A stretch of 32,000 nt of DNA from Mucisphaera calidilacus. GTDB lineage: Bacteria; Planctomycetota; Phycisphaerae; Phycisphaerales; Phycisphaeraceae. The position numbers were made by a program, and so were the translations under genes. The stretch lies in the NCBI RefSeq assembly GCF_007748075.1, contig NZ_CP036280.1:3000001-3032000 (forward strand), in the 5' to 3' direction. Below, one piece after another: positions 2,757 to 29,660 of this stretch (positions within the stretch are counted from its first letter, which is position 1; every line of letters starts with the position of its first letter). The notes beneath the pieces were generated by a model, which worked only from the letters and a program-made list of their open reading frames with translations, did not search any database and was not told where the DNA came from.

Positions 2757-3802
2757 ATGCAACTACTGGCGATCGACCTCGGCAAATTCAAGAGTGTGGC
2801 GTGCCTCTATCGTGGTGATGATGACACGGAGTTCCGGACGATCGAGACCCGGCCACAGGTGATCCACGATCTGCTGACGGAGTGTGAGCCGGAGCGATTG
2901 GTGGTGGAGGTGGGGACAGTGACGGGCTGGGTGCACGACCTGGCGGCGGCTCTGGGGATCGAGGTGCAGGTCGCCAACCCGAATACCGAGGGCTGGCGTT
3001 GGCGTCGGGTCAAGCGTAAGACGGACCGAGACGACGCATTGAAGCTCGCTCGGCTATCGGCGGCAGGTCAACTGCCAACGGTGTGGATGCCCAAGCCGCG
3101 GGTTCGGCAGTGGCGTTCGCTCATCCACTACCGGCACGCATTGGTGAGCCGGCGGACGGCGATCCGCAACAACATCCGATCGGTGCTGGACGCTCAGGGA
3201 CTTGGTCTGGCGATGGGCAAGAAGGCGTGGACCGAGGAGGGCATGCTTCGTGTGGCGGAGATCGCCAAGCCGATTGTGTCGTGCTCGGCGGATGAGTTGT
3301 GGCGCGGTCAGCTCGATGTCGAGGCGACCTTGCTGGTACAGCTGCAATCGCAGCTCCAAGCGGTTGAAGACAGGCTTGATGCGCTCGCGGCGACCGACGC
3401 CCGCACGGCTCGGCTTCGCACGATCCCGGGCGTGGGCCCACGTCTGAGCGAGGCGGTGGTAGCTTGGGTGGACGACCCGGAGCGATTCCGCAATGCCAGG
3501 GCCGTGGGCTCGTACGTCGGCCTGGTTCCCCGGCGGCGGCAGTCGGGGACCTACGACCGTTCGGGGCGTGTGACCAAGCAGGGCCCGAGTCTCTTGCGGA
3601 AGCTACTGGTGGAGGTGGCTTGGATCATGCGGCAGCACAATCCGCACGCGGAGGCGTTGTTCAGGAAGCTGAGCAAGGGGAGCGGAGCCGGCACAAGCAG
3701 GCGATGGTGGCCTTGGCTCGGCGGGTGCTGACCTGGTGCTGGGCGATCTTGCGGGATGGCAGCACGTGGGACCCCGAACGGATCGGGTTGGAAGCGGCCT
3801 AG
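2757..3802 (+). pseudogene. IS110-family DEDD transposase, apparent frameshift near 3675-3695
   Basis: MQLLAIDLGK (D), VVEVGT (E), KRKTDRDDALKLARL (DD), then TIPGVGPRLSEAVVAWVDDPERFRNARAVGSYVGLVPRRRQSGTYDRSGRVTKQGPSLLRKLLVE (Transposase_20). The conserved C-terminus HKQAMVALARRVLTWCWAILRDG lies in another frame (track ORF 3464-3802). The frames switch around the GGGG run at 3677-3680. Confidence 0.8.
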
Positions 3803-5059: not shown

Positions 5060-6445
5060 TTACCTGCCGGGACTTCGACCTCCATTAGGTGAAATCGAAG
5101 GCGGGAAGCCGGGATACGGATAACGCGTCTTGCTGATCAACCACATGAACAGTGGGGTGCACAGATAAGCAATGCCACCGAAGACGAAAGCGTACCGATA
5201 GTCATTACTCGCCCATAGGATCACCCAACCGGATAGCTGTGCACCGATGATCTGAAGTATCCGGCAGAATATCTGATTCGCACTTAACAGCTGGCCAAAG
5301 CGATCCTGAGGCAGATACGCAAAGAGCATCGGCAACAGTGTCGCTGTGAGGACCCCGTTCGCTGCTGCGAAGAGGACATAAACGACGACCAGCATAGACT
5401 GGCTTTCCGCGAGAAGAAGACCGATCTGTAGAGCTCCAACAACCGCGCAGCCCGCACCCCAGAGTAGTTTCGGCCCCGAGCGGTCGATCAGCCAACCCGC
5501 CGGTATGAGGAACAGCATTGAGGTGGCGGTGCCGATGGCAAGCAGATTCCCTAGATACTCGCTGCTCAGGCCAAGCCCCACGTCCTCACTCGTGACGTAG
5601 ATATTGAAGTAGCTTCCCATCACTGGGCCGCCTAACGCGGTGGCACCAATAACAAAACCCAACAGTATGATGTACCGATTACCGAAGCCCAGCTTGGCGT
5701 AGTCAGTAACCGCAGACATCAATGTCTTGCGTGCAGGAGGCGGAGGGTACTTGCCCTCCTTCACCAGAATCAGCATCCCCATCTCAACGATGAAGGCCAG
5801 CGTAGAGATCCCAATGAAGACGGCGACGGGGTGATCATCAAAGAAGCGGAGAACACCCGCCTGAAAGAAGATCGCACCCACGCCCCCGATCAGCCTCATG
5901 CCCGCAACAAAGCGCCCCATTAGTTCTGGTGGCACCACATCGTTGTACAACGCATTGAGAATATTCGATCCCGCACCTGCAAACGAGATTAGTGCCAGCG
6001 GAATGATCGCGGCTGCGAAGGAGTCGACAAAGGGGAGCATCAGAAGCCCCACGTACCAGATCGGCGTCGTGAGGAAGTCGTAGGGTCGTCTACGTCCCCA
6101 GCGGGTCTGTGTCCGGTCGCTCATTGTTCCGATGATCGGAAAGACGAGCAGAGCTCCCAACGGAATGATCGCCAAGAGCGTGCCAATCTGCCCCGCATCC
6201 ATTCCCTTGCTATGCAGCAGCAGTGGCAGCAGTACCGGGAAAGCCACAAACTCGAGATTGAACGTGAATTGTCCCACAAAAAGGATAGAGAATAGCCGTG
6301 CAAGTCGAGCGCGTGTGTAAATAAGTGACCCACAGCGCCAGACTCTCCGGCCTTGCTCGTCATAGAGGTTGCCTTCTCGCTCGAAGACAGCCACTTCGGG
6401 TGGTACTTCCACGCTCGCTTGCTCCGCGAGATTGTCATCAGGCAT
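5060..6445 (-). CDS. MFS transporter, glycoside-pentoside-hexuronide (GPH)-type sugar:cation symporter
   Basis: Multi-pass membrane protein with a GPH-type loop, GTMSDRTQTRWGRRRPY. Start chosen at ATG 6445 (AGAGG 9 nt upstream; ATGCCTGA overlap with the upstream stop). The track ORF extends to 6478. Confidence 0.8.
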   Translation of the reverse strand: MPDDNLAEQASVEVPPEVAVFEREGNLYDEQGRRVWRCGSLIYTRARLARLFSILFVGQFTFNLEFVAFPVLLPLLLHSKGMDAGQIGTLLAIIPLGALLVFPIIGTMSDRTQTRWGRRRPYDFLTTPIWYVGLLMLPFVDSFAAAIIPLALISFAGAGSNILNALYNDVVPPELMGRFVAGMRLIGGVGAIFFQAGVLRFFDDHPVAVFIGISTLAFIVEMGMLILVKEGKYPPPPARKTLMSAVTDYAKLGFGNRYIILLGFVIGATALGGPVMGSYFNIYVTSEDVGLGLSSEYLGNLLAIGTATSMLFLIPAGWLIDRSGPKLLWGAGCAVVGALQIGLLLAESQSMLVVVYVLFAAANGVLTATLLPMLFAYLPQDRFGQLLSANQIFCRILQIIGAQLSGWVILWASNDYRYAFVFGGIAYLCTPLFMWLISKTRYPYPGFPPSISPNGGRSPGR

Positions 6446-8879
6446 ATCGCTCAACCTCTTTGCAGTGCACCCAATCATCCTGGTGCATCAGACGCCATGC
6501 ATGGGCCCCTTCTCCAACAGCATGCACACCCGTTGGCAGATGAACTTCCGCACGGTGGCCTTGGGGGAGTTCAACGTTCACCTCAAGCAGGCGGTTAGTG
6601 AGCACCCAACTCGCCGTGATTATCCCATCACCGATGGGGACTGAACACGAAGCCCGGGAACAGAGGGTGCTCTCCCAGTGGGGCTTGATGACGACCTCTC
6701 CCCATGCAGGCGCGGTCGGCCTAAGCCCGCATAGCAGCTGAGGCAACAAATGAATCGGATGTGCTGACCAAGCATGCGAGCAGGTGGTGTCGCCATCACC
6801 TGGCGGCTCGAAGCGCTCCCAAGTACCGCCAAACGGCACCATGGGCAACCAATGTTCACGAAGATGATTGAGCGCCAGATCAGTCAGTCCCCAGTGATGA
6901 GCTGCTTCGTAGATGTAAGCCAGCCAGAAAGGTGTGGGTTGAGCCCCTTCGCTCAATTCACCCTTGAGGTAGCTGCCTAGATAACGATCGGCGAGTGCCG
7001 ATGCCTCTTCAGGCACTACATCAACCAACAGTGCTTGTACCTGTGTGTGCAGCGATGCTGAAGGATACAGACTTCCATCCTCAGCAAAGCCGTCCCTGAA
7101 GTGCTGATTCTCAGCATCCCAGAGCTTCTCAATGATCGAGTGTCTCAAGACCTCAGCCAGCTTGCCTACACGCTGGGCTCGCCCCCCCAGACCCACGACA
7201 TCAACAAGTTCCGCCACACGATCCAACGCTTCGAGGAGCATCATACTGAGCAAGGCAGGGCGGCCCTTACGTGGCAGATCAGGCGTCCAGTCAAGAAAAA
7301 GCCAGTACCGCGAGTCCGCAGGAACCAACTCGCCATCCGCCAGGCCATATTGCTCGAAGTAGCCCAAGACCTGATCGATCCTCGGCCAGAGCTCCTCAAA
7401 AAGACAGGGATCCCCAGTCTGAAAATAATCATCCCAGATCGTCAGCATCCAGATCGGCGCATAATCAGGCAAGACACAGTAATGGCCGATGGTCGGCGCG
7501 TGCCCATAGGTCAACCCCTCGGCTGTCGCCTGCTGAGGATCACCGACCTGACGGAGCCCACGACGAAATAGTCGCACGTCGTCCGACAGATAGAACGTGT
7601 TCCTGGCTTGGATGCGCGTGTCTCCCCACCACTGAGCCTGCTCACGCCATGGTGTGTCCACATAGGCATCGATCATGCAGTTGCGCTGAGTGCTCACCGA
7701 GACCCTGTATATCTCCATGAGATCATGTCGATCCGTTTCGAACTCACCTCTTATCTCCAGCGGATAGAGCGTCTCTCGATGCCCAACTGAGAGATTGATT
7801 TCTGAAGCAGGGCCATTAATGAGAAGCGTGGCAAAACGATGACCGATGATCTGGAAGGCATGATAAGCCTGTACTCCCTCACCAAAGCAGACTCGCGTTG
7901 CCATATCAACACGGCTGTGATCCCTAGGATCAGAGAGTATTGGTCGGCCGGTCTCATCCGCCGCTTCTGAATAAACGATGTCGAGCTTAGATTCAGATGC
8001 CGAACTATCTGCCTCGAGTAGCAACTCTCCCACACTGGGACGGCCAAGATCAATCGTCACGCCAACAGTATGGCCTTCTGTTACTTGAGGCAGCTGTAGC
8101 CGTAGCCAATCACCATCCTTGTCCCATTGAATGTGTGGCTGCTGCCAGTCAGCACTGTTTAGAGCCTCGAAGTATCGAGAGGTGATGCCATCGCCGTCTT
8201 CGGTAAGGTGATCATCACTGAGTATTGCCTGCCCGATGACTGACTGGTAGGGTAGCTGCTGTGTGGTGAGCGACGGTATGCCGCGTTGTTCTACGCGATC
8301 CCAAGGGCGACCCCCAAAAGGAAGAACAAAGGGTTCAACCCAGGAATCGCCCCCCAGATCAAGATCGGTCGCGTGCCAATCACCATCACGCTCGCGAAGA
8401 TCTACGCGCTCCTGAAACCCGAGTTGCTTACTCAGCTTGATCATCCTGCGCACGCGCGTTGGATCGTTTCGGCAGAGCCAGGAGGAATCAGATCGGATCA
8501 CGAGATCGCCGATCTCGGCTGCGCATAGCAGGCCTGCAGCCCCCTCGGATCGATAGCGGAAGGTGCCCACACCCGGGTTATGCACTAGCACACCTATAAC
8601 ATTGATGCCCTCACGTAGATATACATCCAATACATATTCATCAACCGGCCAGTGAGACTGATACCCCCGTGCTGGTCCACGCCCCACATACTGACCATTG
8701 ATGAATAGCTGATACGACTCGTCGGCCGTAATACACATTAGGCACTGTGTGGGAAGAAGCTTCAGCTCAAAGGTCTTGCGAAACTGTACGTAACGATTGA
8801 CCGGATCCAGCGTCGGCTCGTCATGCCAGAGCCACGAAGCTTCCGGAAGCACTTCCTGAAAGAGATCTTGGTTGTTCAT
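6438..8879 (-). CDS. Alpha-L-rhamnosidase-like glycoside hydrolase (GH78-type)
   Basis: N-terminal rhamnosidase-type region (ASWLWHDE...YVQFRKTFEL...LMCITADESYQLFINGQYVGRGP...EYVLDVYLREGINVIGV). Six-hairpin region (DTPWREQAQWWGDTRIQ...LPDYAPIWMLTIWDYFQTGD-like). No obvious signal peptide. Confidence 0.65.
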   Translation of the reverse strand: MNNQDLFQEVLPEASWLWHDEPTLDPVNRYVQFRKTFELKLLPTQCLMCITADESYQLFINGQYVGRGPARGYQSHWPVDEYVLDVYLREGINVIGVLVHNPGVGTFRYRSEGAAGLLCAAEIGDLVIRSDSSWLCRNDPTRVRRMIKLSKQLGFQERVDLRERDGDWHATDLDLGGDSWVEPFVLPFGGRPWDRVEQRGIPSLTTQQLPYQSVIGQAILSDDHLTEDGDGITSRYFEALNSADWQQPHIQWDKDGDWLRLQLPQVTEGHTVGVTIDLGRPSVGELLLEADSSASESKLDIVYSEAADETGRPILSDPRDHSRVDMATRVCFGEGVQAYHAFQIIGHRFATLLINGPASEINLSVGHRETLYPLEIRGEFETDRHDLMEIYRVSVSTQRNCMIDAYVDTPWREQAQWWGDTRIQARNTFYLSDDVRLFRRGLRQVGDPQQATAEGLTYGHAPTIGHYCVLPDYAPIWMLTIWDDYFQTGDPCLFEELWPRIDQVLGYFEQYGLADGELVPADSRYWLFLDWTPDLPRKGRPALLSMMLLEALDRVAELVDVVGLGGRAQRVGKLAEVLRHSIIEKLWDAENQHFRDGFAEDGSLYPSASLHTQVQALLVDVVPEEASALADRYLGSYLKGELSEGAQPTPFWLAYIYEAAHHWGLTDLALNHLREHWLPMVPFGGTWERFEPPGDGDTTCSHAWSAHPIHLLPQLLCGLRPTAPAWGEVVIKPHWESTLCSRASCSVPIGDGIITASWVLTNRLLEVNVELPQGHRAEVHLPTGVHAVGEGAHAWRLMHQDDWVHCKEVERYA

Positions 8880-8905: not shown

Positions 8906-10621
8906 CTAGCCACGCCTAAAGAGAACCTGACGCTGATAGGTGCTATCCGGCATCGATCGGTGCACCATGTCATCCAGAGGCCTTAACACCGCCCCGCTCA
9001 CACGATCAATCAACGTTGCGGGTTCACTGACTTCCAGACGCTCCGGATGTAGCTGATCACCGATCAACCAAGGCATTGAGTAGCTGCCTAAGACCAACGG
9101 GCCCCACTGAATCCGTACTCGATCAGAGTCATGGCTCCATGCGTCAAGTGTCCAGGCCATCCGCCAGGTGCACTCAATTCGAGATCCAGCCTTTGGCATA
9201 AACTCAAAAACAGACCACTGCCCAACGCGCTCCACGGGATGCGCAATCCCATCAATCCGGATAATCGGATCCTCATCATCAAGAACCGGCAATCGCCAGC
9301 AAATAGACTCAGATATCGATGAAGACAGAACCTCAACAACGAGTCGCCCCTCACGGGGGTAACCGGAATCGATCTTGAGCTGCAGACGCTCGCCACCAAG
9401 GCTCAGTTCCGCCTGAACACTCTCTAATAAACCAAGACTGATCTGCTTGTCAACGACACGCAACGCCGAAGCCGCCGCATAAGCAAGCCCATCCGCGCCA
9501 CGCATTGTGCAGCACCAGGGAGCCTCAGGCGTCGAGATCCCAACATGATGACCGCGTACACCCACACAGCTGTCGCACCCATAGCCCCCATTACACCGCT
9601 GAGCGTGCCCCAGCCCGCTGTACCAGATTCCATGTAAAGCCTTAAGATGGCGAAACTGCCCTTTGGCCTGCCAGAGATGCTCCGCGACCATCATCGCATC
9701 AACGATCGCGCACGGCTCTGTCCAACTCGGTCGTCCAAACCAGTTCTGATTCTGATAGAGAGCCGTCGAGCCATACTGCAAGTACAGATCGAAACGAGAT
9801 TCAACTGAATCAATCAGATCAGGGCGGTTAAGGATTCTGGCCGCTCGTAGCAAAGCCCGGCAGGCGGTCAGGGTGGCGTGTGTTTGCGCCTGAGCCTGAA
9901 CTACATCGATCAAGAGAAAACGCTCGGCCATCGCCGAGATCAAGTCACGAAGCTCTTCTGAAGCATAATGCCGATAGAACGAGGTCAGGCCGTCAAGAAA
10001 GATGAAGGCACAGCCCACGTCGGTGGAAATCCGCCAGCCGTCGATCGCCTGACTCAGATGCCCCGCATGCAGGCCGCTCCGATCACCCGAGCTTGGCGGA
10101 GTGAGTGGGTAGCTCGCGATCAGACCCTTAAGGCCTTGCGTCAGCCCATCGACCACACGCCTGCCACGAACCAGCCAACGCGGATCACCAGTCACGTCGT
10201 AAGCCGCGCCAAGACCGCGCAGTACCCAGCCATGCGATGACAGCTGCTGCTCGTCTGCCAGCCCGCTTGAAACGATCGCCCCAAAATAGCCCTGCCTATT
10301 GACATGGCGCTCCCAGCCCTTATCCAGCGTCTCCACCAGGGGGTGGGCCATGCCGCTCGTAGCCGAAAGCCGCGAAGCTGCCAGCAACGCACGCCCTTCA
10401 TAATCTCCCGGCCACTCATAACCGGGCGTGTGCGTAAAAATCTCCTCAGCGGTGTAAGGCGACATCAATAACCGCTCGTAACTCAACAAAACACGCTTGG
10501 CAAGGTTTCCCGAGGCCGTAACTGAGAGAACTCGACTCTTACGACGTCGAGGGGGCACCTGCACGGATTGGCTGACAACCACGGCAGGTGTATCTGGAAT
10601 GGTGCGTGTGCCTGAATTCAT
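8906..10621 (-). CDS. Six-hairpin glycosidase-like protein, GH127/DUF1680-like (possible beta-L-arabinofuranosidase-type)
   Basis: (alpha/alpha)6-like motifs (YEGRALLAAS, QLSSHGWVLRGLGAAYDVTGDPRWL). Cys-rich putative active/Zn site (CNGGYGCDSC...PWCCTMRG) reminiscent of the GH127 CC motif. Lies 26 nt upstream of the GH78 gene on the same strand. Family assignment is tentative, and the start (10621 vs 10462) is uncertain. Confidence 0.5.
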   Translation of the reverse strand: MNSGTRTIPDTPAVVVSQSVQVPPRRRKSRVLSVTASGNLAKRVLLSYERLLMSPYTAEEIFTHTPGYEWPGDYEGRALLAASRLSATSGMAHPLVETLDKGWERHVNRQGYFGAIVSSGLADEQQLSSHGWVLRGLGAAYDVTGDPRWLVRGRRVVDGLTQGLKGLIASYPLTPPSSGDRSGLHAGHLSQAIDGWRISTDVGCAFIFLDGLTSFYRHYASEELRDLISAMAERFLLIDVVQAQAQTHATLTACRALLRAARILNRPDLIDSVESRFDLYLQYGSTALYQNQNWFGRPSWTEPCAIVDAMMVAEHLWQAKGQFRHLKALHGIWYSGLGHAQRCNGGYGCDSCVGVRGHHVGISTPEAPWCCTMRGADGLAYAAASALRVVDKQISLGLLESVQAELSLGGERLQLKIDSGYPREGRLVVEVLSSSISESICWRLPVLDDEDPIIRIDGIAHPVERVGQWSVFEFMPKAGSRIECTWRMAWTLDAWSHDSDRVRIQWGPLVLGSYSMPWLIGDQLHPERLEVSEPATLIDRVSGAVLRPLDDMVHRSMPDSTYQRQVLFRRG

Positions 10622-10820: not shown

Positions 10821-11666
10821 ATGCCTACCGCCCCAGCATCTCGACAGGCCGGATTCGGCTTCAACGGCAATTACATGGACATTGAGCCCATGGCCGCACC
10901 TCATCAGCACCTCGACATCGAGATCGATTTCATCCTCGAGGGTGGTGCAGAATATACCATCGCCAACAAACATATACGCCTCATACCCGGTCATCTGCTC
11001 ATCTTCTGGTCGACTATCCCGCATCAGGTCAAGCGTTTTGAGCCTGAAACTAAAGGCTGCTACCTTCACCTGCCCATCATGGAATTCTTCCACTGGAACC
11101 TGAAGTCCGACCTCGTCGCACGTGTCAGTTCTTGCGAAACCGTCCTCATCGAGTCGGGCAGGTACTACGAACTCGACCGCAACCTCTTCAAGCTGTGGGT
11201 TGAAGATTTCCTTAGCCCAGGCTTTAAGAACTCGCTCGCCGTCAGAAGACAGCTGATGAATGAGATCGAATATCGATTTCGACGCGTCGAACCCGACGCC
11301 ATCAATGCCATGCCTACCGTCCTCAACGGGCCCGTCCCTGATGTCGTCATCGAGATGGCTAAGTGCATTGCCAGCGATTGCTGCGCCCCTTGTTTCACCG
11401 TACAGACGGTCGCACAACAGGTCGAGCTCAACGAACGCTACGCCATGACGCTCTTCAAAAAAAGCCTCGGAATGACCATCCACGAATTCATCCTCAGGCA
11501 CCGCGTCGCCCACGCCCAGTATCTCCTAGCGACAACCGATCAGACCGTCCTGGCCGTCGGCCTAGAAAGCGGCTTTGGCTCGCAAAGCAGCTTCTACGCG
11601 GCCTTCAAGCGCTACGCCAAGCTAGCTCCCGCCGACTACCGAGAGCAACTCCACAGCTCTAACTAA
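10821..11666 (+). CDS. AraC-family transcriptional regulator (cupin sensor + HTH_18)
   Basis: N-terminal cupin-like region (HQHLDIEIDFILEGG...IPGHLLIFWSTIPH). C-terminal AraC HTH (VQTVAQQVELNERYAMTLFKKSLGMTIHEFILRHRVAHAQYLLATTDQTVLAVGLESGFGSQSSFYAAFKRYAKLAPADYR). Divergent from the GH operon. Confidence 0.85.
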   Translation: MPTAPASRQAGFGFNGNYMDIEPMAAPHQHLDIEIDFILEGGAEYTIANKHIRLIPGHLLIFWSTIPHQVKRFEPETKGCYLHLPIMEFFHWNLKSDLVARVSSCETVLIESGRYYELDRNLFKLWVEDFLSPGFKNSLAVRRQLMNEIEYRFRRVEPDAINAMPTVLNGPVPDVVIEMAKCIASDCCAPCFTVQTVAQQVELNERYAMTLFKKSLGMTIHEFILRHRVAHAQYLLATTDQTVLAVGLESGFGSQSSFYAAFKRYAKLAPADYREQLHSSN

Positions 11667-11864
11667 CTACTGCCTGTAAATCTGGAGAATCTGATAATCC
11701 CGGAAGTGTCTGGGTGGCAGACGGAAGCCGTGGATTGAAGATCGCGGCATATTGTTGTACGAATCAAGAGTGATTTCCATGTTTCGTGCAGCCTAGATGC
11801 CAGATCAATGGTCTCAACCCCGAATTAATCGATTCATCTGGCATGAACATAACGGAGTCTCGAT

Positions 11865-12698
11865 ATGGCCAGCATGCCAGATATTCAGTTGATCAATAAT
11901 CGCGCCTTCACTCTTATTGAACTCCTCGTGGTGATCTCCATCATTGCCCTGCTCATCGGCATCCTGCTGCCGGCTCTTGGTGCCGCACGCGAATCTGCCA
12001 GGCTTATGTCCTGCCTCGCTAACGAAAGACAGATGGGCATCGCCATGACTAATTTTGCCTACAGTAAGGACGGCCGTCTTCCCTACGACGAACTCGATCT
12101 CTCGCAGGGCACTTGGCCCAACGCCCCCATACGTGTCACTTGGGACGACCAGCTCTCCCAGTACGACAGCCGCCAGCTCGATCAGCAGGCCGTCAATCAG
12201 GATCTCCTCGCTGAGGAAGACGGTGTTCAGAATCTCTACCTCTGCCCATCCGACGACCTCGATCGAGAAACCGCGGGCATCGCCAAACGAACTTACGCCA
12301 TGGCCGCTGGAAGCCAATTTCACCAGCAGAACCCTGACCTCGGTACTTGGGAAGTCGGCATCTATGGCTGGGACCAGATCATCCACGTGAACGAGGACCG
12401 CCGAACACTCTGGTCCGCGAAGATCGACAGTGTCTTCGATGCTTCAGGCACCATCGCTATCGGTGAATACGCCACCGAGACCAACTATCTGGGACGCGCC
12501 GAAGACCGCGTAATGGAGCTGTTGAACATGGAGGCCCCAGACGCACCCGAAGCCGGCTATACCCCACACCAGGCCAGCGGTCGCACCAATTTCCTCTATG
12601 TCGACGGGCACGCCTCCACCAGCTCCTATCCCGAAGTCTTCGAGAACCGCATAGCCAAGGGCAATTACAACGGAACCGCTTTTGACTGCTTCAAGTGA
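11865..12698 (+). CDS. DUF1559-type pseudopilin (prepilin N-terminal cleavage/methylation domain plus H-X9-DG-like C-terminal motif)
   Basis: [40 protein letters not shown] is the type IV pilin-like N-methylation signal. The C-terminus has [11 protein letters not shown]. Confidence 0.85.
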
Positions 12699-12744
12699 GC
12701 CGTCTTGCTCACGCATCTCTGTTTCAACCTTAAGGAGGGTTACG

Positions 12745-13350
12745 ATGATAGTAGATTCAATGATGAGAACATGTTGCACCTTCACGGCCGCCAGTCTGCT
12801 CGCGACAACAGCAGCCACGGCACAAGTTGGCCCCGGCCAACCCTTCATCGCCGACGACTTCGAGTCTGGCCTCGGTTCATGGGGTACTGAGGGCGGAACC
12901 GCCGCTGTCAGCATCACCGCGGATGCCTTCAACGGTGCAGGGGCATTGGAAGTCGATTACGCCGCTGATTTCGATGGGGCGCGTATCGATATCCCTCTCG
13001 ATCCCAGCAATATCTTCGCTGAGATGAATCTGGGATTCGTCTACAAGGCCGCCGTCGATAGCGCTTCTGCCCTCCCGGGTCTACGCGCACTCGTGGTTGA
13101 GTTCAGCCCGTCGGGTCTCACCTTCCATAACGGTGATTTCCTGTTTGCTAGCGACACATGGCAGGCATCGCCGCTACAGACCATCAACCTTGCTCGCCCT
13201 GATGCCGACGCGCTCGCCCTGATCATTCAGGGACACACCAACAAGCCCGGTTCCTTCATTGTTGATGACCTGACTCTCTCCAACGTTCCGGAGCCCGCCT
13301 CCGCAGCCTTGCTCGGACTCGCTGGACTCATCGCGACACGCAGACGCTGA
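12745..13350 (+). CDS. Secreted CBM-like (jelly-roll type) protein with PEP-CTERM anchor
   Basis: AAGGAGG at 12732-12738, then ATG 12745. Signal peptide (TFTAASLLATTAATAQV). ADDFESGLGSWG-type CBM4/9-like opening. C-terminal VPEPASAALLGLAGLIATRRR is PEP-CTERM. Paralog of 15047-16000. Confidence 0.75.
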   Translation: MIVDSMMRTCCTFTAASLLATTAATAQVGPGQPFIADDFESGLGSWGTEGGTAAVSITADAFNGAGALEVDYAADFDGARIDIPLDPSNIFAEMNLGFVYKAAVDSASALPGLRALVVEFSPSGLTFHNGDFLFASDTWQASPLQTINLARPDADALALIIQGHTNKPGSFIVDDLTLSNVPEPASAALLGLAGLIATRRR

Positions 13351-13434
13351 CACCGAGTTAACTCGCGTCACATCGCCTAACCGTGGTGTGACGCCTTATG
13401 TGACGGATCACATACACCGCAGCTAGGGATAAAC

Positions 13435-15039
13435 ATGCGTAAAGCACTCCAGATTGCGATCTCACTCGCCTTTTGTGCCTCGACCACCCAGGCTGATGTG
13501 TCATTCAGCGGTGCCCCTGTGTACCAGGCTACCGTCGGCGCATGGTGGACACCTTTCTACGACCTCAACTCATCAGAGCCGGCCAAAAACTGGGCCGATA
13601 CCCGCTACGACGCGTATCACTCCAACCCGTCTGGCCAAACCGCACTGGGTACCTATAGCTCCGGTTGGGTTCAGACCATCGATAGCCAGATCGCCCAGAT
13701 GAAAGCCGCGGGCATTGATTTTGTTCTCTCCGATCTCACCAACGGCGTCGGCAATGGCATGTCCGAAACTGAGATCCTGATTCAGCGAAACACGATCCCG
13801 GTCGCAGCCGCTATCGGTGGTCCCCTGTGGTTCGGCGGGCCCACCCCCGCCGATGTTCAGGCACAGATGCAGCTCGAAGTCGATGCCGTCTGGAACAAGC
13901 TCGCTAACCAGCCCAACTATGTGCAGTACGAGGGGCAGCCTCTGCTTGTGGCTTACGCCTCATACGACCAGGGGACCCAGAACATGCTTTTGCCGTTCTG
14001 GGGCGACTCTCGGTTTAACGTCCAGCGCGCCACCGGCCGACTCGATGCCGCCAATGCTAATCTCGATCTAGATCAACTTCCCTGGGATTCCTGGTGGGGC
14101 TGGCTCAACGAAGATCAGTTTGCAAGCCCCACCGCCATGGTCGTCAGCCCTGGTTACGACACCGTGCACCTGCGCGGCTCAGCCGGCTTCAAGAAAGACC
14201 GATTCGACGGCGAGGTCTACATCCAGCAATGGCTGGGTGCTATTGCCAACGATCCGGATTTCGTGATCATCGCCAGCTGGAACGACTACAACGAAGAGAA
14301 CCACATCGAGCCCAGCGAGCCCCGAGTCACGGGTGCTCCTCAATGGAAAGACATCAATGGCTTCCAGACCAGCGATCTCTACGTCCAGCTGACTCAGGGC
14401 TACACCGCTCTGCGTGCCAACGTTCTGATTGAAGGTTTCTACTACAGCGAGGAATCTTCTTCTGATATCTATCGTCTTGAGCAAGGCAGCCTAATTTACA
14501 TCGGGGCCGTCAGCCAGATCGAGCCCAACTCTGCTGTGGTCCGGCTGCCAGGCAGCCTTCTGACAGATATTCGCAACCATCGGACACTCTCGACCTACCC
14601 GCCTCCTACACTGCCTTCGGGTGATCTTGACAGCAATGGTATCATATCCGCCGCAGATTTTGACATACTTCTCGATGCCATCCACCTCGGAAGCATTGAC
14701 CCAGCCTACGACTACGATTTTTCAGGAACCATCGATGCCCTGGACGCCCGTGTCTGGCTCGTGCAGATCTTCAACACGCGCTCTGGCGACATCAATCTCG
14801 ATCATCTCATCGACCTGAATGACCTCTCGCTGCTCGCCACCTACTTTGGGCAAAGCGGGAGCTACAAGCAAGGTGACGCTAATTTTAATGGTGTAATTGA
14901 CCTACTCGATCTCTCCATTATGGCTACCAATTTTGGATATAACTCGGTTCCAGAACCAGCATTCGCTTGGCTGACGGCCACTCTCGTCGGTCACGTTTAC
15001 CGACGCACCCGATCAACACCCCTTAAATCAAGGAAGTGA
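13435..15039 (+). CDS. Secreted TIM-barrel glycoside-hydrolase-like protein (GH99-like motifs) with four dockerin-type repeats and PEP-CTERM anchor
   Basis: Signal peptide (AISLAFCASTTQADV). AGIDFVLSD and VIIASWNDYNEENHIEPSEP motifs. Dockerin/EF-hand-like repeats (GDLDSNGIISAADFD, DYDFSGTIDALDAR, GDINLDHLIDLNDLS, GDANFNGVIDLLDLS). VPEPAFAWLTATLVGHVYRRTRS is PEP-CTERM. The catalytic family is not established. Confidence 0.7.
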   Translation: MRKALQIAISLAFCASTTQADVSFSGAPVYQATVGAWWTPFYDLNSSEPAKNWADTRYDAYHSNPSGQTALGTYSSGWVQTIDSQIAQMKAAGIDFVLSDLTNGVGNGMSETEILIQRNTIPVAAAIGGPLWFGGPTPADVQAQMQLEVDAVWNKLANQPNYVQYEGQPLLVAYASYDQGTQNMLLPFWGDSRFNVQRATGRLDAANANLDLDQLPWDSWWGWLNEDQFASPTAMVVSPGYDTVHLRGSAGFKKDRFDGEVYIQQWLGAIANDPDFVIIASWNDYNEENHIEPSEPRVTGAPQWKDINGFQTSDLYVQLTQGYTALRANVLIEGFYYSEESSSDIYRLEQGSLIYIGAVSQIEPNSAVVRLPGSLLTDIRNHRTLSTYPPPTLPSGDLDSNGIISAADFDILLDAIHLGSIDPAYDYDFSGTIDALDARVWLVQIFNTRSGDINLDHLIDLNDLSLLATYFGQSGSYKQGDANFNGVIDLLDLSIMATNFGYNSVPEPAFAWLTATLVGHVYRRTRSTPLKSRK

Positions 15040-15046
15040 TATAATC

Positions 15047-16000
15047 ATGAAATCGAACACATGCCTGCTCGTCGCAACCGTCTCGTTCTTGTCCGCCACT
15101 GCCGCGAATGCCCAGGTCGGCCCTGGAGAGAACTTCCTTGCCGATGATTTCGAGGATGGAATCGGCCTGTGGTTCTCCGAGGGGGTCACCGGTGGAGTCG
15201 ATATCTCCAGCGACGCTTTCGAAGGCATTGGAGCTCTCGAAGTCGATTACATTGCTGACTTTCATGGAGCCAGACAGGACATCAGCCTCGATCCATCAAA
15301 TCGCATGGCTGAGATCGATCTCGGCTTCGTCTACAAAACCGCACCCGACAACTCAGTTGAGCTACCTGGAGCAAGAGCTGTTCTTGTCGAGTTCAGCCCA
15401 TCCGGGATCACTTTCCACAACGGTGATTTCCTGTTCGCGACCGACACATGGCAGGCTGCACCACCCACTCGCTTCACACTCGCACGACCCGACGCCGATG
15501 CACTCGGCCTCATCATCCAGGGACACACAAATCGTCCTGGATCATTCCTTATCGATAATCTCACCCTCACTAACGCCGCCGCGCCTGCCCTGCTCGGCGA
15601 TTTCGACAACTCCGGCGACCTCACCATCGCCGACGTCGATCTTCTTTCCGCAGCCATTCAAGGCGGACCTGCCGGCCCAGAGTTCGATCTGGACGAAAGC
15701 GGCACCCTTACCAATGCGGACCTGACTTTCTGGCTCGAAGATCTATTCGGTACCCGACTCGGCGACGCCAACCTCGATCATGAAGTCGATCTTCTTGATC
15801 TCTCAGCCTTAGCCTCAAAATTCGGCCAGCCCGCAAGCTACGCTGAAGGTGACTTCACTGCTGATGGTTTCGTTGATCTTCTCGACCTCTCAGCCCTCGC
15901 CACCAACTTCGGTTTAGAGGGTGGAACCGTCATTCCCGAGCCTGCTGTTGCTACGCTTGCTCTCATCCCCTTGATAGCCGTCAGAAGACGACACCACTAA
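15047..16000 (+). CDS. Secreted CBM-like protein with four dockerin-type repeats and PEP-CTERM anchor (paralog of 12745-13350)
   Basis: Signal peptide (LLVATVSFLSATAANAQV). The 154-aa domain is 107/154 identical, gap-free, to the upstream paralog (hand alignment). Dockerin-type repeats GDFDNSGDLTIADVD, DLDESGTLTNADLT, GDANLDHEVDLLDLS, GDFTADGFVDLLDLS. IPEPAVATLALIPLIAVRRRHH is PEP-CTERM. Confidence 0.75.
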   Translation: MKSNTCLLVATVSFLSATAANAQVGPGENFLADDFEDGIGLWFSEGVTGGVDISSDAFEGIGALEVDYIADFHGARQDISLDPSNRMAEIDLGFVYKTAPDNSVELPGARAVLVEFSPSGITFHNGDFLFATDTWQAAPPTRFTLARPDADALGLIIQGHTNRPGSFLIDNLTLTNAAAPALLGDFDNSGDLTIADVDLLSAAIQGGPAGPEFDLDESGTLTNADLTFWLEDLFGTRLGDANLDHEVDLLDLSALASKFGQPASYAEGDFTADGFVDLLDLSALATNFGLEGGTVIPEPAVATLALIPLIAVRRRHH

Positions 16001-16048
16001 TCCGTACTACGTCGCAGCCAGTCTCCTAAGAAAGATCAAAACGAATCC

Positions 16049-17806
16049 ATGAAGGCCTGCTTAATCCTCACCTACCTGCTGTTATTGATCATGAGTGATA
16101 CAGCGCCTGCGGCCGTAACTGAGTCCATGGTCACCGTGATCAATTCTACAGACCATGGTGCCATCGGTGATGGGAATAATGATGACACGGCCGCTATTGC
16201 GAGCATGCTTGCCACACTAGAGGTAATCGAAGGCCCGGCTAGGCTCCAGTTCGAATCGAACCGCGTCTACCGAATAGCCAAGCCTGTGATTGACGGCTTT
16301 GCGATTAAGCTTATGGGGCGAGTCGATGTCACAATTGATGGCGGTCAATCCACTTTCCTGCTCGCTCCGAACGTCCGATTCCTGCATGCAATCGACTGCA
16401 CGCATCTCAGCGTCCAAGGCATCAGAATCGACTACGACCCGCTTCCATTCGTCGAAGCCGACATTATCGACGCGCAGCCCGGACAACCCATCATCACCGT
16501 TCGTTCGCAGGAAGGCTTCGATCTTCGTCGCTCGGGCGGACCTACGAGAGACCCTGATGAACAGGCTTACTTCGGTATGTCCTGGCATCAGGGCCCCCAC
16601 AGCCTCATCGGCCATCACCAGATGATTGAAGAGGTCGAGCACCTTCCCGACAACACTGCGAGAATCCGGCTGGCACATCCCTATGAACCAGTAAACACTG
16701 GCGTAGACCACATACCCACTATCACACTACCCGTCCCTGGCATTGCGCATTTACAGGGCCCCGGTCACGTCTTCAAGATCTACAAATGCCATTCCGCTGA
16801 CCTCGAAGATATCGAAGTGTGGTCCGCGCCCTGGTTTGCCTTTGGCATCTTCGGAAACACCGGTGATCTCACCTTCCGCCACACACACGTACGCCCCAAA
16901 CCCGGATCTAGCCGGACCACCTCAACCTGGCGCGATGCCTTCCACGTCAAGAACAACGCTGCCTCTCTTCTGTTTGAGGACATCCACGCCCAGGGATGCA
17001 ACGACGACACCTTCAACATCTCGTCTCACGGCTCACGAGTCTGGAAGCAGATCGACGAGCAGACGTTCGATCTCGTACAGGTCTATCCCCTCGAAATCAC
17101 CCCACTCAACCCGGGTGATCAGGTCGCTTTCTATGACCCCACCAACCACCGCTTCCTCGCCAACGCCCGGCTTGTGAGCGTCCAAGGCGAGCAAGCTCCC
17201 GAGTTCCGTGACGGCCAACCCTACTCGCCCATCCTGCGTGTCAGAGTCGATCGACCAGTCCCCAGCGTCGTTCCCAATCAAACGCTGTTCTGGAGCGTCA
17301 CCTACTCCAATCCACAAACCACCCTACGAAGGGTCAGGCTTTACAACAGCGCTCGTCTCCGCTCACCAGTGACGATCGAAGATAGCCATATCGAAGCACT
17401 CTTGTGGATCACAGGATGGTCCGATGGCACCGAGCTTCCGGTGCCGACCGACATCGTGATCCGAGACTCACTGCTCCGTTACGGCCGTGGCAACCCAACC
17501 CACGCCATCATCGCCACGCCTCTAGAAGCACAAGGTGATACCGATTCACGCCACCTGCCTGGAACGCCACCTGTCACGAACGTTGTCTTCGAGAGGAATC
17601 GCATCTTCGGCGGCTTCTACATCGGACAGGCGACAGGCATCCGACTGATCGAGAATGAGTTTATCACCGAAGGACACCCCATCGAGCTGTTCGATATCAG
17701 GGCTGCACTGCTCCACGGCAACACCGTCGATGGTGAAGAACTTAAACAGAAGCACCTGACACTGAGACTAGCCAATGACACCGATGACGTCCGGATCACG
17801 CCTTGA
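16049..17806 (+). CDS. Secreted right-handed beta-helix protein (Pectate_lyase_3 / GH28-related fold)
   Basis: Signal peptide (LILTYLLLLIMSDTAPAAV). Hallmark N-terminal motif TDHGAIGDGNNDDTAAIASML. Repetitive beta-helix-like body. Confidence 0.65.
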   Translation: MKACLILTYLLLLIMSDTAPAAVTESMVTVINSTDHGAIGDGNNDDTAAIASMLATLEVIEGPARLQFESNRVYRIAKPVIDGFAIKLMGRVDVTIDGGQSTFLLAPNVRFLHAIDCTHLSVQGIRIDYDPLPFVEADIIDAQPGQPIITVRSQEGFDLRRSGGPTRDPDEQAYFGMSWHQGPHSLIGHHQMIEEVEHLPDNTARIRLAHPYEPVNTGVDHIPTITLPVPGIAHLQGPGHVFKIYKCHSADLEDIEVWSAPWFAFGIFGNTGDLTFRHTHVRPKPGSSRTTSTWRDAFHVKNNAASLLFEDIHAQGCNDDTFNISSHGSRVWKQIDEQTFDLVQVYPLEITPLNPGDQVAFYDPTNHRFLANARLVSVQGEQAPEFRDGQPYSPILRVRVDRPVPSVVPNQTLFWSVTYSNPQTTLRRVRLYNSARLRSPVTIEDSHIEALLWITGWSDGTELPVPTDIVIRDSLLRYGRGNPTHAIIATPLEAQGDTDSRHLPGTPPVTNVVFERNRIFGGFYIGQATGIRLIENEFITEGHPIELFDIRAALLHGNTVDGEELKQKHLTLRLANDTDDVRITP

Positions 17807-17888: not shown

Positions 17889-19565
17889 ATGAATGCTCCA
17901 ACCTATGCCATCGGCGTCGACTACGGCACCAACAGCGTTCGCGCATTGGTCGTCGATACAGCCAACGGTGATGAGATAGCCACCGAAGTCTTCGAGTATC
18001 CCTCGGGTGATGCAGGCATCCTCATCGATCCCGCTGATCCCAACCTCGCCCGGCAAAACCCTCAAGACCACATCGATGGCTTCATCAGCACAGTCAAGAA
18101 CGTTGTAATCCAGGCTAGGCAGCACTCCGCTTTCACACCCGATCGGATCGTCGGTATTGGTGTTGATACCACTGGATCCAGCCCGTTACCGGTCGATCAG
18201 AATGGCACCCCTCTAGGCATCCTTCCAGAGTTTCAGAACAACCTGGCTGCGCAGTGCTGGCTGTGGAAAGACCATACAGCGCACGCTGAAGCCGCTGAGA
18301 TCACAGCACTCGCCGAGGAGCGTAGTGAGCCTTATCTGACCCTCTGTGGCGGCACGTACTCTTCCGAGTGGTACTGGTCGAAGATGCTCCACTGCGAACG
18401 CATCGCTCCCGAGGTCGCCAAAGCAGCCTACAGCTGGGTCGAACTCACCGACTTCATCCCCGCCTATATCACTGGCCAGCACAATCCAGACACTATGCCC
18501 CGGGGCATCTGTGCAGCCGGTCATAAAGCCATGTTCAGCCATCGATGGGGAGGACTTCCCTCCCTCGACTTCCTCGAATCACTCCAGCCAGGCTTCTCAC
18601 GATTCAGAAAGCGATACACAAGCAAACCACAGCCCTCTAGCCAACCCGCTGGTCAGCTCGACCAGAGAGTAGCTGATCTAGTCGGACTACCAGCCCGAAT
18701 CAATGTCGCAGCCGGAGCCTTCGATGCCCACCACGGGGCCGTCGGCTCCGGTGTATCCCCGGGAACCATCGTCAAGATCATCGGGACCAGCACATGCGAC
18801 ATCATGACCAGCCCGCTGGACCAAGAACTAGCCGACATCCCAGGTGTTTGTGGCATCGTCCCCGAATCGGCTCTGCCAGGAGCCTACGGCATTGAAGCGG
18901 GTCAATCTGCGGTTGGTGATCTCTTCAATTGGTTCATCAAACATCTAGGCCCTGTCGGTCACGAAGCACTCACTCAGGAAGCCCTAGAACTCCCCCCAGG
19001 AGCCTCAGGGCTTCTGGCCCTCGACTGGAACAACGGCAATCGCACTGTCCTCGTCGATCCCAGACTCTCTGGCCTCCTTGTCGGCCAGACTTTGCACACG
19101 ACCGCCGCCGAAATCTACCGCGCGCTCATCGAAGCCACTGCCTTTGGGTCCCTAACCATCATCGAGCGCATCGAAGAACACGAGGTCCCTGTCGAGCGCG
19201 TCGTGATGTGTGGTGGTATCGCCGAGAAGAATCCTATGGCGATGCAGATCTACGCAGATGTCCTCAATCGCCCAATCCGCATCGCTCGATCGCGGCAAGC
19301 CTGCGCACTCGGAGCTGCCATCTTTGGAGCCGTTGTAGGCCATGCCCATCGCAATACCCAATCCGCCATCGCAGCTATGGCTGGCACCAAAGAAACCGTC
19401 TACCAGCCTATTACTTCGAACGTCAACACCTACGCCGAGCTCTACACACTCTACCGACGGCTCCACGACGCCTTTGGCGGCGTCACTAAGCAGGCCGTGC
19501 TGGGAGACGTCATGAAGCGTCTCATCAGCATCCGTGATCGTGCCCGGAGTATCCGCCATGCTTGA
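17889..19565 (+). CDS. araB: Ribulokinase (FGGY family)
   Basis: 558 aa. YAIGVDYGTNSVRALVVD N-terminus, SSEWYWSKMLH, GTSTCDIM, MCGGIAEKNPMAMQIYADVLNRPI. Followed by araD and araA. Confidence 0.9.
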   Translation: MNAPTYAIGVDYGTNSVRALVVDTANGDEIATEVFEYPSGDAGILIDPADPNLARQNPQDHIDGFISTVKNVVIQARQHSAFTPDRIVGIGVDTTGSSPLPVDQNGTPLGILPEFQNNLAAQCWLWKDHTAHAEAAEITALAEERSEPYLTLCGGTYSSEWYWSKMLHCERIAPEVAKAAYSWVELTDFIPAYITGQHNPDTMPRGICAAGHKAMFSHRWGGLPSLDFLESLQPGFSRFRKRYTSKPQPSSQPAGQLDQRVADLVGLPARINVAAGAFDAHHGAVGSGVSPGTIVKIIGTSTCDIMTSPLDQELADIPGVCGIVPESALPGAYGIEAGQSAVGDLFNWFIKHLGPVGHEALTQEALELPPGASGLLALDWNNGNRTVLVDPRLSGLLVGQTLHTTAAEIYRALIEATAFGSLTIIERIEEHEVPVERVVMCGGIAEKNPMAMQIYADVLNRPIRIARSRQACALGAAIFGAVVGHAHRNTQSAIAAMAGTKETVYQPITSNVNTYAELYTLYRRLHDAFGGVTKQAVLGDVMKRLISIRDRARSIRHA

Positions 19566-20262
19566 GCAACTCCGTGAACAGGTTTGCAAAGCGAACAAGA
19601 GATTGGTTACCGAGAATCTTGTCACCCTGACCTGGGGAAATGTCAGCGGCATCAGTGAAGATAGAAAGGACATCGTGATCAAACCAAGCGGTGTGCCCTA
19701 CGACGAACTAACACCGGAGCAAATGGTCATCGTCAGTATCGATGGTCAAGTCATCGATTCACCACTTCGCCCATCCTCAGACACACCCACACACCTTGAG
19801 ATCTACCGCCACTTCCCGAACGCCAACGGCATCGCCCACACTCACAGTCGATATGCCACCATCTTCGCCCAGGCTCGACGAAGTATCCGCTGCACGGGTA
19901 CCACCCACGCCGATCACTTCAGGGGTGACATCCCCGTCACGCGCGCTCTGACCCCCCATGAAGTCGAATCCGGTTATGAACACGAAACCGGCAGGCTCAT
20001 CGTCGAAACCTTCCGCGAAAATCAACTCGACCCGCATTGTCTACCCGCCATCCTCCTCGCCGGGCACGCCCCCTTCGTTTGGGGGCCGTGTCCCGACAGA
20101 GCTATGGACAACTCCGTCGCCCTTGAAGCCATCGCTGAAATGGCTCTGCACCTCGAACTACTTGCGCCCAACGCCCCTGGTCTCGAAGCCCACATCCTGG
20201 CCAAACACCAGTCCCGCAAGCACGGGCCAGATGCGTACTACGGCCAGACAAATACGCCCTAA
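19558..20262 (+). CDS. araD: L-ribulose-5-phosphate 4-epimerase
   Basis: [32 protein letters not shown]...[17 protein letters not shown]...[26 protein letters not shown] (class II aldolase/adducin fold). The ATG overlaps the araB stop (ATGCTTGA). Confidence 0.9.
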
Positions 20263-22516: not shown

Positions 22517-22624
22517 GGTCTTGGTGGTCTTCGTGGTCTTCGTGGTCTTCGTGGTTTTCGTGGTCTTCGTGGTCTTCGTGGTCTTCGTGGTCTTCGTGGT
22601 CTTCGTGGTCTTCGTGGTCTTCGT
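22517..22624. repeat. Tandem repeat, 9-bp unit GGTCTTCGT x12 (two variant units)
   Basis: Directly visible head-to-tail units from 22517 (first unit GGTCTTGGT, fifth GGTTTTCGT). No spacers. Confidence 0.9.
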
Positions 22625-22915
22625 GTTTTTCACACGAAAGAAAGAGAGTTCACCACGGTGGCCGTTGCCGCTGACCTCACGTAGAGCCTATCCGGGAAGG
22701 AGCCATGCCAGTGATGCCTCGCCTACCTGATTGCTCGCTTAGGCTTGAACTGGCCCATCCTGGCAATGGCCTTCAGTTCTTCAATGCTGGAAGCGTGGGG
22801 TGGCTTGAGGAATTGGTGCCATAGACACATGCCCTCCCGCAACCACCGAATGATCATATTTTATTGCGAAACGGCCGATTTGCCCCGACATTTCTCACTG
22901 GTGATCGGTAGCGGA

Positions 22916-24531: not shown

Positions 24532-24833
24532 TGGCTGAACTCGAAAGTTTCCGTACTCATTTTAGCGTAGCGAGGGACGCCTCTGGACGGAAGGCTTCGG
24601 GTGATGGCGGGGGGTGATGGCCGGTCTGATTGTGAAGAACACTGGCTGTACCTTGTTTCCGCTGGACGTTGCGTGGATTGCGATGGCCCGCGGGGGCAGC
24701 GGGGCGGGTGGTGAGGCCGGCTCGCCGTGAACCTGTTAAAAAACAGGTGTGTGGGGCGTTGTTTGGCGGGCGCACGTGCGGGTTGTGCGCGTGGAAGGCT
24801 GGGACTGTTTTGGCGCGTGACGATCGACACAGA

Positions 24834-27548: not shown

Positions 27549-27554
27549 CCGGCC

Positions 27555-29654: not shown

Positions 29655-29660
29655 TGCGAA

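Follow-up and report, generated by a model that had tools for sequence, protein, structure and literature searches.

A candidate polysaccharide-utilisation operon in Mucisphaera calidilacus combines a DUF1559 pseudopilin, dockerin- and PEP-CTERM-tailed proteins and two divergent predicted glycoside hydrolases

Introduction

What does a run of five genes for exported proteins do directly upstream of the L-arabinose genes araBDA in a marine planctomycete? The run, whose genes we call g1 to g5, lies in a 32,000-nucleotide (nt) stretch of the Mucisphaera calidilacus genome (contig NZ_CP036280.1, positions 3,000,001 to 3,032,000), referred to here as the window; nt coordinates count from the window start (Table 1), and L001 to L014 designate related loci in other genomes. 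Planctomycetota and Verrucomicrobiota are major glycan degraders of marine and soil environments and operate without the SusC/SusD logic of Bacteroidota loci. We favour, with reasonable rather than high confidence, the reading that the g1-g5 region is a polysaccharide-utilisation operon of the kind used by Planctomycetota-Verrucomicrobiota-Chlamydiota (PVC) bacteria.

An initial annotation of the window, made from the sequence alone, had proposed an exported, glycan-directed module distinct from both SusC/SusD polysaccharide-utilisation loci (PULs) and classical cellulosomes. That proposal is borne out by g3, a predicted hydrolase of the glycoside hydrolase (GH) GH99/GH71 clan, by g5, a predicted GH110-like protein, and by the co-recurrence of these genes in PVC genomes; the annotation named the exported module correctly and overlooked g3 and g5 as glycoside hydrolases. 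The locus, in a genome that seems to come from the cultured strain Pan265, offers a compact, conserved test case for glycan binding, enzyme display and import in PVC bacteria.

Results and discussion

Two predicted glycoside hydrolases

The product of g5 is predicted to form a right-handed beta-helix, the fold first suggested for it, in an AlphaFold2 (AF2) model with a predicted local distance difference test (pLDDT) score of 91.5. When this model was compared with the Protein Data Bank (PDB) by Foldseek, the top 15 matches were all GH110 structures (E = 1e-26 to 1e-23, template modelling (TM) score 0.65-0.73) and the next fold followed at 4e-7. A profile of the g5 family matched GH110 at E = 1.4e-20, and a single-sequence phmmer search at about 3e-4 (2.8e-4). 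Residues D296 (nt 16934-16936) and D319-D320 (nt 17003-17008), invariant in 40 g5 homologues, align with D321, D344 and D345 of PdGH110B, which uses D344 as general acid and D321 and/or D345 as base (PMC7939477). We interpret g5 as a distant GH110-like hydrolase in which the catalytic Asp triad is predicted to be intact. It resembles the GH110 alpha-1,3-galactosidases (PdGH110B, AgaBb and the Akkermansia enzyme) in having a beta-helix fold with an N-terminal domain and an Asp/Asp-Asp constellation with the same 23-24 residue spacing, and differs from them in its low identity in structural alignments (14-17%) and in belonging to a family of about 95 members, none of which carries a functional annotation from any source.

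The hydrolase domain of g3 (amino acids (aa) ~22-385) is of the (beta/alpha)8 type. It scores 41.9 bits against the Pfam GH99 model (PF16317; cut-off 33), with only the C-terminal part of the model aligning well, and 24.1 bits against GH71 (PF03659), below the cut-off of 34; a match to WbsX is also sub-threshold. A profile of the 9 homologues of g3 matched structures of GH99 (1.6e-10) and, more weakly, of GH71. The g3 motif SWNDYNEENHIEP aligns with SFNEWHEGTQIEP of BtGH99, which places D284 and E287 (nt 14284-14295), both invariant in the nine homologues, on the catalytic pair E329/E332. In both GH99 and GH71 the dyad has the form D/E-x-x-E, its first residue typically being Asp in the inverting GH71 enzymes and Glu in GH99 (PMC12394665; PMC6001782). 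The g3 dyad reads D284-Y-N-E287 and does not follow the E-x-x-E pattern of GH99, and a bona fide GH99 assignment was rejected on this D-x-x-E dyad.

We therefore treat g3 as a putative separate small family within the GH99/GH71 clan and as a probable endo-alpha-glycanase. Its likeness to the GH99 endo-alpha-1,2-mannanases and GH71 alpha-1,3-glucanases lies in the (beta/alpha)8 clan fold, in the position of the dyad and in the surrounding residues (SWND-YN-E-ENHIEP in g3, SFNE-WH-E-GTQIEP in the reference). It departs from them in that its first dyad residue is the Asp of GH71 whereas the overall sequence scores better on GH99, and in that its neighbours (GH78, GH110-like, sulfatases) are unlike those of mannan or mutan loci. 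Homologues are rare, with 9 found among 5.8 billion proteins at the sensitivity of the search, and all those with a named source come from Planctomycetota. The families of g3 and g5 form an uncharacterised pair that spans two phyla and are targets for enzyme discovery.

Paralogous candidate binding proteins and export signals

The description of g2 and g4 as paralogues resembling carbohydrate-binding modules (CBMs) holds for the paralogy, their N-terminal domains (150 aa; g4 aa ~23-178) being 65% identical, and less firmly for the CBM-like label. The CBM_4_9 model reaches this domain of g2 at E = 0.06 with 14.2 bits, below its cut-off of 25.9, and a g2/g4 profile matches a CBM22 structure at E = 0.01. 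In the AF2 model of g4 the N-terminal domain, modelled from 4 informative sequences, has a pLDDT of 36-77, so the fold assignment is indicative only. A Foldseek search with this low-confidence model returned almost exclusively beta-sandwich CBMs (CBM70/16/22/6/4/61; E = 2e-5 to 6e-4).

Export signals had been assigned to all five proteins, and we agree: g1 has a prepilin-type N-terminus detected by hidden Markov model (HMM), and the N-termini of g2, g3, g4 and g5 are hydrophobic and Sec-like on visual inspection and in a hydropathy window. No such N-terminus is present on the GH78 protein, the GH127-like protein or AraBDA encoded nearby. The public gene call for g5 (559 aa, start 16127) loses the signal peptide, and the leader requires the ATG at 16049. 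We favour 16049 and regard the public start as probably misannotated, because most homologues carry a similar N-terminal extension (20-35 aa in 11 of the 12 inspected, usually with a hydrophobic stretch).

Conservation of the gene set in related loci

Orthologues of g1, g3, g5 and the GH78 gene occur together in four or five Planctomycetota/Phycisphaeraceae loci, as identified by tblastn, with an orthologue of the major facilitator superfamily (MFS) transporter added in L004 and L008. The latter is 56% identical and adjoins the GH78 and GH99-like genes; GH78 orthologues in L003, L004 and L008 are 47-48% identical. Companion genes in the related Planctomycetota loci include sulfatases, Laminin_G_3 proteins, a LacI regulator, a GH36-like gene and ATP-binding cassette (ABC) or MFS importers. 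In L010, from a Luteolibacter metagenome-assembled genome (MAG) of the Verrucomicrobiota, GH127-like, g5-like and g3-like genes are adjacent in this order, followed downstream by a DUF1559 gene, a second GH99-like domain and a GH78 gene. The contig of an Akkermansiaceae MAG likewise has g5-like and g3-like genes side by side. The g2/g4 domain recurs as a pair of long and short paralogues (g2 orthologues P0108 and P0109), located beside DUF1559 and GH99-like genes in L012 and beside GH127-like and extracytoplasmic function (ECF) sigma factor genes in L013 and L014.

The second GH99-like domain of L010 belongs to a 1,075-aa protein (11864-15091, downstream of the DUF1559 gene) that joins FG-GAP repeats to a divergent domain with 23% identity to g3.

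Neither araBDA nor the AraC regulator was found in any of the related loci. Conservation of the gene order next to araBDA, a check suggested with the initial annotation, thus does not extend to any related locus; the conserved core consists of the hydrolases and the pseudopilin, with the arabinose genes as a local addition.

A dockerin and PEP-CTERM tail shared across the genome

Three of the proteins end in a PEP motif, a hydrophobic stretch and a basic cluster (g2, VPEPASAALLGLAGLIATRRR; g3, VPEPAFAWLTATLVGHVYRRTR...; g4, IPEPAVATLALIPLIAVRRRHH). PEP-CTERM proteins are sorted by exosortases, and dockerins mediate Ca-dependent protein assembly, classically onto cohesins. The proposal of three PEP-CTERM ends stands at the level of the motif, which is present in g2, g3 and g4; HMM cut-offs are passed by g2 only. 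The g2 tail (PEP at nt 13288) scores 21.2 bits against PF07589 (cut-off 20.7) and 19.3 bits against TIGR02595 (cut-off 16). No PEP-CTERM model of Pfam or NCBIfam matched the tails of g3 (nt 14947-15036) or g4 (nt 15932-15997), even in scans of the isolated tails at E ≤ 10. An alignment with tails named PEP-CTERM by NCBI accommodates the g4 tail column for column, and P297-E298-P299 is invariant across 19 sequences.

Upstream of these tails, g3 and g4 each carry four canonical 12-residue Ca-type loops of the form D-x-[DNT]-x-[DNS]-x3-[DSTN]-x2-D (g3 nt 14623-14910, g4 nt 15599-15886), in line with the four dockerin repeats first reported for them. Both pass the gathering score of Dockerin_1 (PF00404; 25.4 and 25.5 bits, cut-off 22.9), and the dockerin regions scanned alone give two matched stretches each, at 30.4 and 27.2 bits. 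The AF2 model of g4 contains four loop-helix units in this region at a pLDDT of 86-97. With four Ca-type loops each, g3 and g4 carry two dockerin modules in tandem. From the C-terminal architectures, which are directly observed, we infer that g2, g3 and g4 are located at the cell surface.

The pairing of two anchoring or assembly devices had been put forward as a feature of this locus, which it is not: in at least 11 other M. calidilacus proteins the same tail follows GH5, GH16 and unknown N-terminal domains. A search with the 140-aa tail against 1.84 billion representative sequences retrieved 14,845 proteins at E ≤ 1e-3; at the stricter limit of E ≤ 1e-10 there were 2,093 cluster representatives, with unrelated N-terminal domains. 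Among the best 149 matches, 108 span the four repeats and the PEP region, and 94 of these 108 end within 15 residues of the C-terminus. Domains fused to the tail include polysaccharide lyase (PL) family 6, GH10, GH5, GH25, SASA esterase, GDSL lipase and beta-lactamase folds, and the carriers with a named source belong to Mucisphaera and Phycisphaeraceae. Two tail-bearing genes examined in relatives have housekeeping neighbours, with no exosortase gene seen near either. Because it is found on many unrelated proteins of this genome and of relatives, the tandem dockerin plus PEP-CTERM tail appears to be a generic display cassette of the Phycisphaeraceae and not a locus-specific device.

Detection of this cassette by existing models is poor. 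In a set of 54 tail-bearing proteins, in which PEP, a helix and RRR can be seen at the end after a tandem dockerin, 40 match Dockerin_1 and only 7 reach the Pfam PEP-CTERM model at E ≤ 0.001. Current PEP-CTERM models seem to under-call this tail variant badly. A literature search brought up no open-access paper in which dockerin and PEP-CTERM are both named, and the combined tail is very widespread, apparently undescribed and mostly missed by PEP-CTERM models. Compared with PEP-CTERM/exosortase sorting as represented by TIGR02595 and the floc protein PepA, the tails share the PEP motif, hydrophobic helix and basic cluster on multiple paralogous secreted proteins, as well as an environmental host that produces exopolysaccharide (EPS). 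They differ in that most fall below the models and in that a tandem dockerin always precedes them.

In the related Planctomycetota loci, sulfatase and Laminin_G_3 proteins with a dockerin/PEP-type tail are encoded at L001 3886-6342 and L002 2837-5254; sulfatases too, it appears, are displayed with this cassette in relatives.

These tails raise the possibility of a cohesin-dependent multi-enzyme complex, or 'planctosome', in which the tandem dockerins plug into a scaffold encoded elsewhere and the PEP-CTERM signal serves only for delivery to the surface. Such a complex has been proposed for other Planctomycetes, and dockerins are also reported from non-cellulosomal contexts (PMC6461901). The Dockerin_1 gathering score, the canonical loop-helix pairs in the g4 model and a set of tailed proteins (GH5, GH10, GH16, PL6, esterases, proteases) that resembles a cellulosomal repertoire would fit this explanation. 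No cohesin was found, however, in the window open reading frames (ORFs) scanned or among the genes shown around tail-bearing proteins of relatives, and a self-anchored enzyme needs no scaffold. We consider the complex, and with it the cellulosome-like reading, an improbable rival. The likeness to the clostridial cellulosome consists of a C-terminal Dockerin_1 with paired Ca-binding loop-helix repeats on glycan-active proteins. Here, in contrast, the dockerin is tandem-duplicated and stands before a membrane-spanning sorting signal, neither cohesin nor scaffoldin is seen in the window, the host is a diderm planctomycete, and the tail is also found on esterases, beta-lactamase-fold proteins and many proteins in which no domain is recognised.

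The leading pseudopilin gene

The identification of g1 as a DUF1559 (SBP_bac_10) pseudopilin, of short length, was confirmed, with 41.4 bits against PF07596 (cut-off 23.3) and, for the prepilin-type N-terminus, 28.9 bits against PF07963 (N_methyl; cut-off 21.2) and 25.7 bits against TIGR02532 (cut-off 16.3). This N-terminus reads RA|FTLIELLVV, with Ala at -1 where the canonical site is G|F and with Glu present at +5. The site is G|F in two of three orthologues and one distant paralogue, and A|F in the other orthologue and another paralogue. Full-length g1 orthologues are encoded in the GH99-like loci L001, L003, L004 and L008 (36-45% identity by tblastn, 37-47% by alignment); in L001 the orthologue comes first in the gene run, and in L004 it lies directly upstream of the g5-like gene. 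The DUF1559 gene neighbouring the module in L010 and L012 is a more distant paralogue of g1.

In the alignment of g1 with its orthologues and distant DUF1559 paralogues, C50 and C127 do not vary, and neither does a C-terminal H-x(n)-N-x4-D motif, which in g1 is two residues longer than in the five other aligned sequences.

DUF1559 genes form one of the largest planctomycete gene families and have been described as PVC-specific solute-binding-like proteins (PMC4807772). In a review that summarises Boedeker et al. 2017, planctomycetes are hypothesised to take up polysaccharides with pilin-like 'fishing rods' (PMC12078418). A search that combined prepilin and polysaccharide utilisation with Planctomycet* found no paper in the searchable literature. 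The present locus resembles the 'fishing-rod' scheme in that there is a genetic link between a pilin-like protein and a particular set of glycan-degrading genes. It differs in that the scheme is framed for Planctomycetia with crateriform structures (PMC12078418), none of which were observed in M. calidilacus (PMC8882080), and in that the window contains no pilus-assembly genes and the role of g1 is purely conjectural. That a g1-type pseudopilin travels with a defined hydrolase set makes the 'fishing-rod' hypothesis testable.

Gene organisation and genomic context

Table 1. Genes of the g1-g5 region and its flanks (positions in nt from the window start).
Feature	Position	Strand	Description
MFS sugar-type transporter	5060-6478	-	Pfam MFS_1 1.9e-32
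GH78 alpha-L-rhamnosidase	6438-8879	-	Pfam Bac_rhamnosid6H 1e-28 and C-terminal domain
GH127-like (DUF1680-type)	8906-10621	-	Pfam GH127 catalytic domain E = 0.01, below cut-off
AraC/MelR-family regulator	10821-11666	+	HTH_18 8.9e-20, Cupin_2; MelR-like 4e-42, below cut-off
g1	11865-12698	+	DUF1559 pseudopilin
g2	12745-13350	+	Leader, CBM-like domain, PEP-CTERM tail; database start 12760
g3	13435-15039	+	Leader, predicted GH99/GH71-clan domain, four dockerin loops, PEP-type tail
g4	15047-16000	+	Leader, CBM-like domain, four dockerin loops, PEP-type tail
g5	16049-17806	+	Leader, predicted GH110-like beta-helix hydrolase, no anchor
araB	17889-19565	+	L-arabinose catabolism
araD	19534-20262	+	L-arabinose catabolism
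araA	20280-21713	+	L-arabinose catabolism

The ORF coordinates agree with the layout given in the initial annotation, in which five consecutive same-strand genes, separated by gaps of 46, 84, 7 and 48 nt, end 82 nt before araB. They are flanked by the AraC/MelR-type regulator gene upstream and by araBDA downstream, and all five appear to be genuine genes, because each has homologues elsewhere. The arabinose genes pass their respective models: araB as ribulokinase (NF003154, 630.7 bits, cut-off 428), araD as L-ribulose-5-phosphate 4-epimerase (NF006047, 315.8 bits, cut-off 257) and araA as L-arabinose isomerase (NF002795, 731.8 bits, cut-off 622). A terminator-like hairpin (11727-11748) follows the regulator gene, and no terminator-like site was found in any intergenic gap from g1 through araA. 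Because these gaps are short and free of such sites, araBDA are probably co-transcribed with g1-g5 as a single operon from g1 to araA, for which the AraC/MelR-family protein is a candidate regulator. A promoter scan was uninformative (1 site against 4.9 expected), and Rfam and tRNA scans of the window gave no matches.

On the minus strand, the GH78 enzyme is probably cytoplasmic, because it has no signal peptide, and the MFS transporter is a probable importer of released oligosaccharides or monosaccharides. The transporter ORF overlaps the GH78 ORF by 41 nt (6438-6478), and its real start probably lies further downstream, because homology to MFS orthologues begins only at residue 33. The GH127 family is known for beta-L-arabinofuranosidases. 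The GH127-like protein had no sequence match in the PDB by phmmer, and its homologue in L010 (35% identical) matches the GH127 middle domain at 2.3e-11 and the catalytic domain at 3.2e-5.

Base composition sets this region apart. Its guanine plus cytosine (GC) content is 54-60% across ~4-24 kb of the window and 54-58% over g1-g5, compared with 65-69% in the right flank (25000-32000) and a published genome average of 63.9% (PMC8882080). Insertion sequence (IS) elements lie on the left of this low-GC glycan/arabinose segment, which looks like a horizontally acquired island. The module could then be a mosaic, in which g1-g5 and araBDA, and possibly g1 itself, are merely adjacent in acquired DNA and the glycan has nothing to do with arabinose. 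The composition of this IS-flanked segment agrees with such an origin, as does the presence, in the related loci, of LacI regulators, sulfatases and GH36-like genes where M. calidilacus has araBDA and the AraC regulator. The shared strand and the 82-nt g5-araB gap without a terminator-like site speak against it, as does the GH127-like gene, which is co-conserved in L010 (with g5 and g3) and in L013 and L014 (with g2/g4). On balance we consider a mosaic possible and rather unlikely.

Proposed function and comparison with known systems

If the g1-g5 region is a polysaccharide-utilisation operon, the AraC/MelR-type regulator would control one long transcript, comprising g1-g5 and araBDA, that starts downstream of the hairpin at 11727-11748. 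The products of g2 and g4 would act as paralogous beta-sandwich binding proteins and g3 as an endo-alpha-glycanase, all exported and held at the surface by their C-terminal PEP-type signals, and g1 might be a pilin-like or membrane-tethered protein that binds a specific substrate and passes the glycan on to the cell. Fragments would be trimmed by g5, a putative secreted inverting exo-glycosidase, and the products brought into the cell by the MFS transporter. There, GH78 and the GH127-like enzyme would release L-rhamnose and, in M. calidilacus, L-arabinose, which AraA, AraB and AraD would route to the pentose-phosphate pathway. Going by the enzymes encoded, the substrate would be an alpha-linked heteroglycan that contains rhamnose together with galactose or arabinose and is probably sulfated in relatives, given the sulfatases found there. 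An arabinose- or rhamnose-containing glycan, the target originally suggested, survives as one possible substrate only, since relatives carry sulfatases.

Such an operon would resemble Bacteroidota SusC/SusD PULs in comprising a regulated set of surface binding proteins, a surface endo-hydrolase, exo-hydrolases, an importer and monosaccharide catabolism. It would differ in its parts: domains of SusC/TonB-dependent transporters and of SusD are absent from all window ORFs scanned and no lipoprotein anchoring was seen in the window, whereas PEP-type tails would provide the anchor, an MFS protein the import, and a DUF1559 pseudopilin gene leads the operon. A domain scan of 19 window ORFs found no cohesin, exosortase or type II secretion system (T2SS) core domains, in agreement with what had been noted before.

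A different function for the same genes would be matrix remodelling, in which the module trims or organises the cell's own exopolysaccharide and the tails tether enzymes into the matrix. The classical association of PEP-CTERM/exosortase systems is with the formation of EPS and flocs. The g2 protein matches the models of floc-associated PepA and of exosortase-dependent surface proteins, all below cut-off, and the species description reports viscous, colloid-like growth with fimbriae or a polar matrix (PMC8882080). Glycosyltransferase, polymerase and export genes, on the other hand, were not seen in the window, and its wiring is catabolic, with an MFS importer, probably cytoplasmic GH78 and GH127-like proteins, araBDA and a sugar-type regulator. 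The related loci, with sulfatases, LacI regulators and ABC or MFS importers, are likewise typical of foraging. We regard matrix remodelling as quite improbable.

Several observations weigh against a polysaccharide-utilisation operon as outlined above. The hydrolases are only distantly related to their reference families, g3 to GH99 and g5 to GH110, the latter at the identity given above, so that substrate specificity is not transferable. The tails of g3 and g4 fail all PEP-CTERM models, and the CBM assignment of g2 and g4 rests on a low-confidence model and sub-threshold HMM scores. Given the size of the DUF1559 family and the different paralogue present in L010 and L012, some of the adjacency of pseudopilin and hydrolase genes could be due to chance. 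Finally, araBDA, the AraC regulator and the lack of sulfatases are peculiar to M. calidilacus, and the arabinose link may be a local mosaic.

A bolder extension of the operon reading, which we put forward tentatively and consider unlikely as a whole, is that PVC bacteria possess an undescribed architecture of their own. It would combine a substrate-specific DUF1559 'fishing rod' or membrane-tethered binder that co-evolves with a hydrolase set, an exosortase-processed, cohesin-free tandem dockerin plus PEP-CTERM cassette by which dozens of enzymes are displayed at the cell or within the EPS, and a conserved pair of new GH families (GH99/71-like with D-x-x-E, and GH110-like) acting on an alpha-linked rhamnose/galactose/arabinose glycan, sulfated in relatives.

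Other features of the window

At the left edge, beside the IS elements, an ORF at 32-829 fuses an Mrr-type restriction endonuclease domain to a topoisomerase-type C4 zinc ribbon. At 1973-3731, an IS3-type ORF, with HTH_21 and an rve core whose match stops at position 76 of the 102-position model, runs into an IS110-family transposase ORF (DEDD_Tnp_IS110 and Transposase_20), which suggests a nested insertion that disrupted the IS3-type element. A 9-bp tandem repeat, GGTCTTCGT, occupies 22517-22625 in 12 copies with 97% matches and gives rise, on both strands, to the artefactual ORFs (KTT)n and (VVF)n. A response regulator of unusual architecture, with an N-terminal Schlafen AlbA_2 domain, two receiver domains and an HD_5 (HD-GYP-like) domain, is encoded at 27555-29654 and adjoins a hybrid histidine kinase at 24669-27548.

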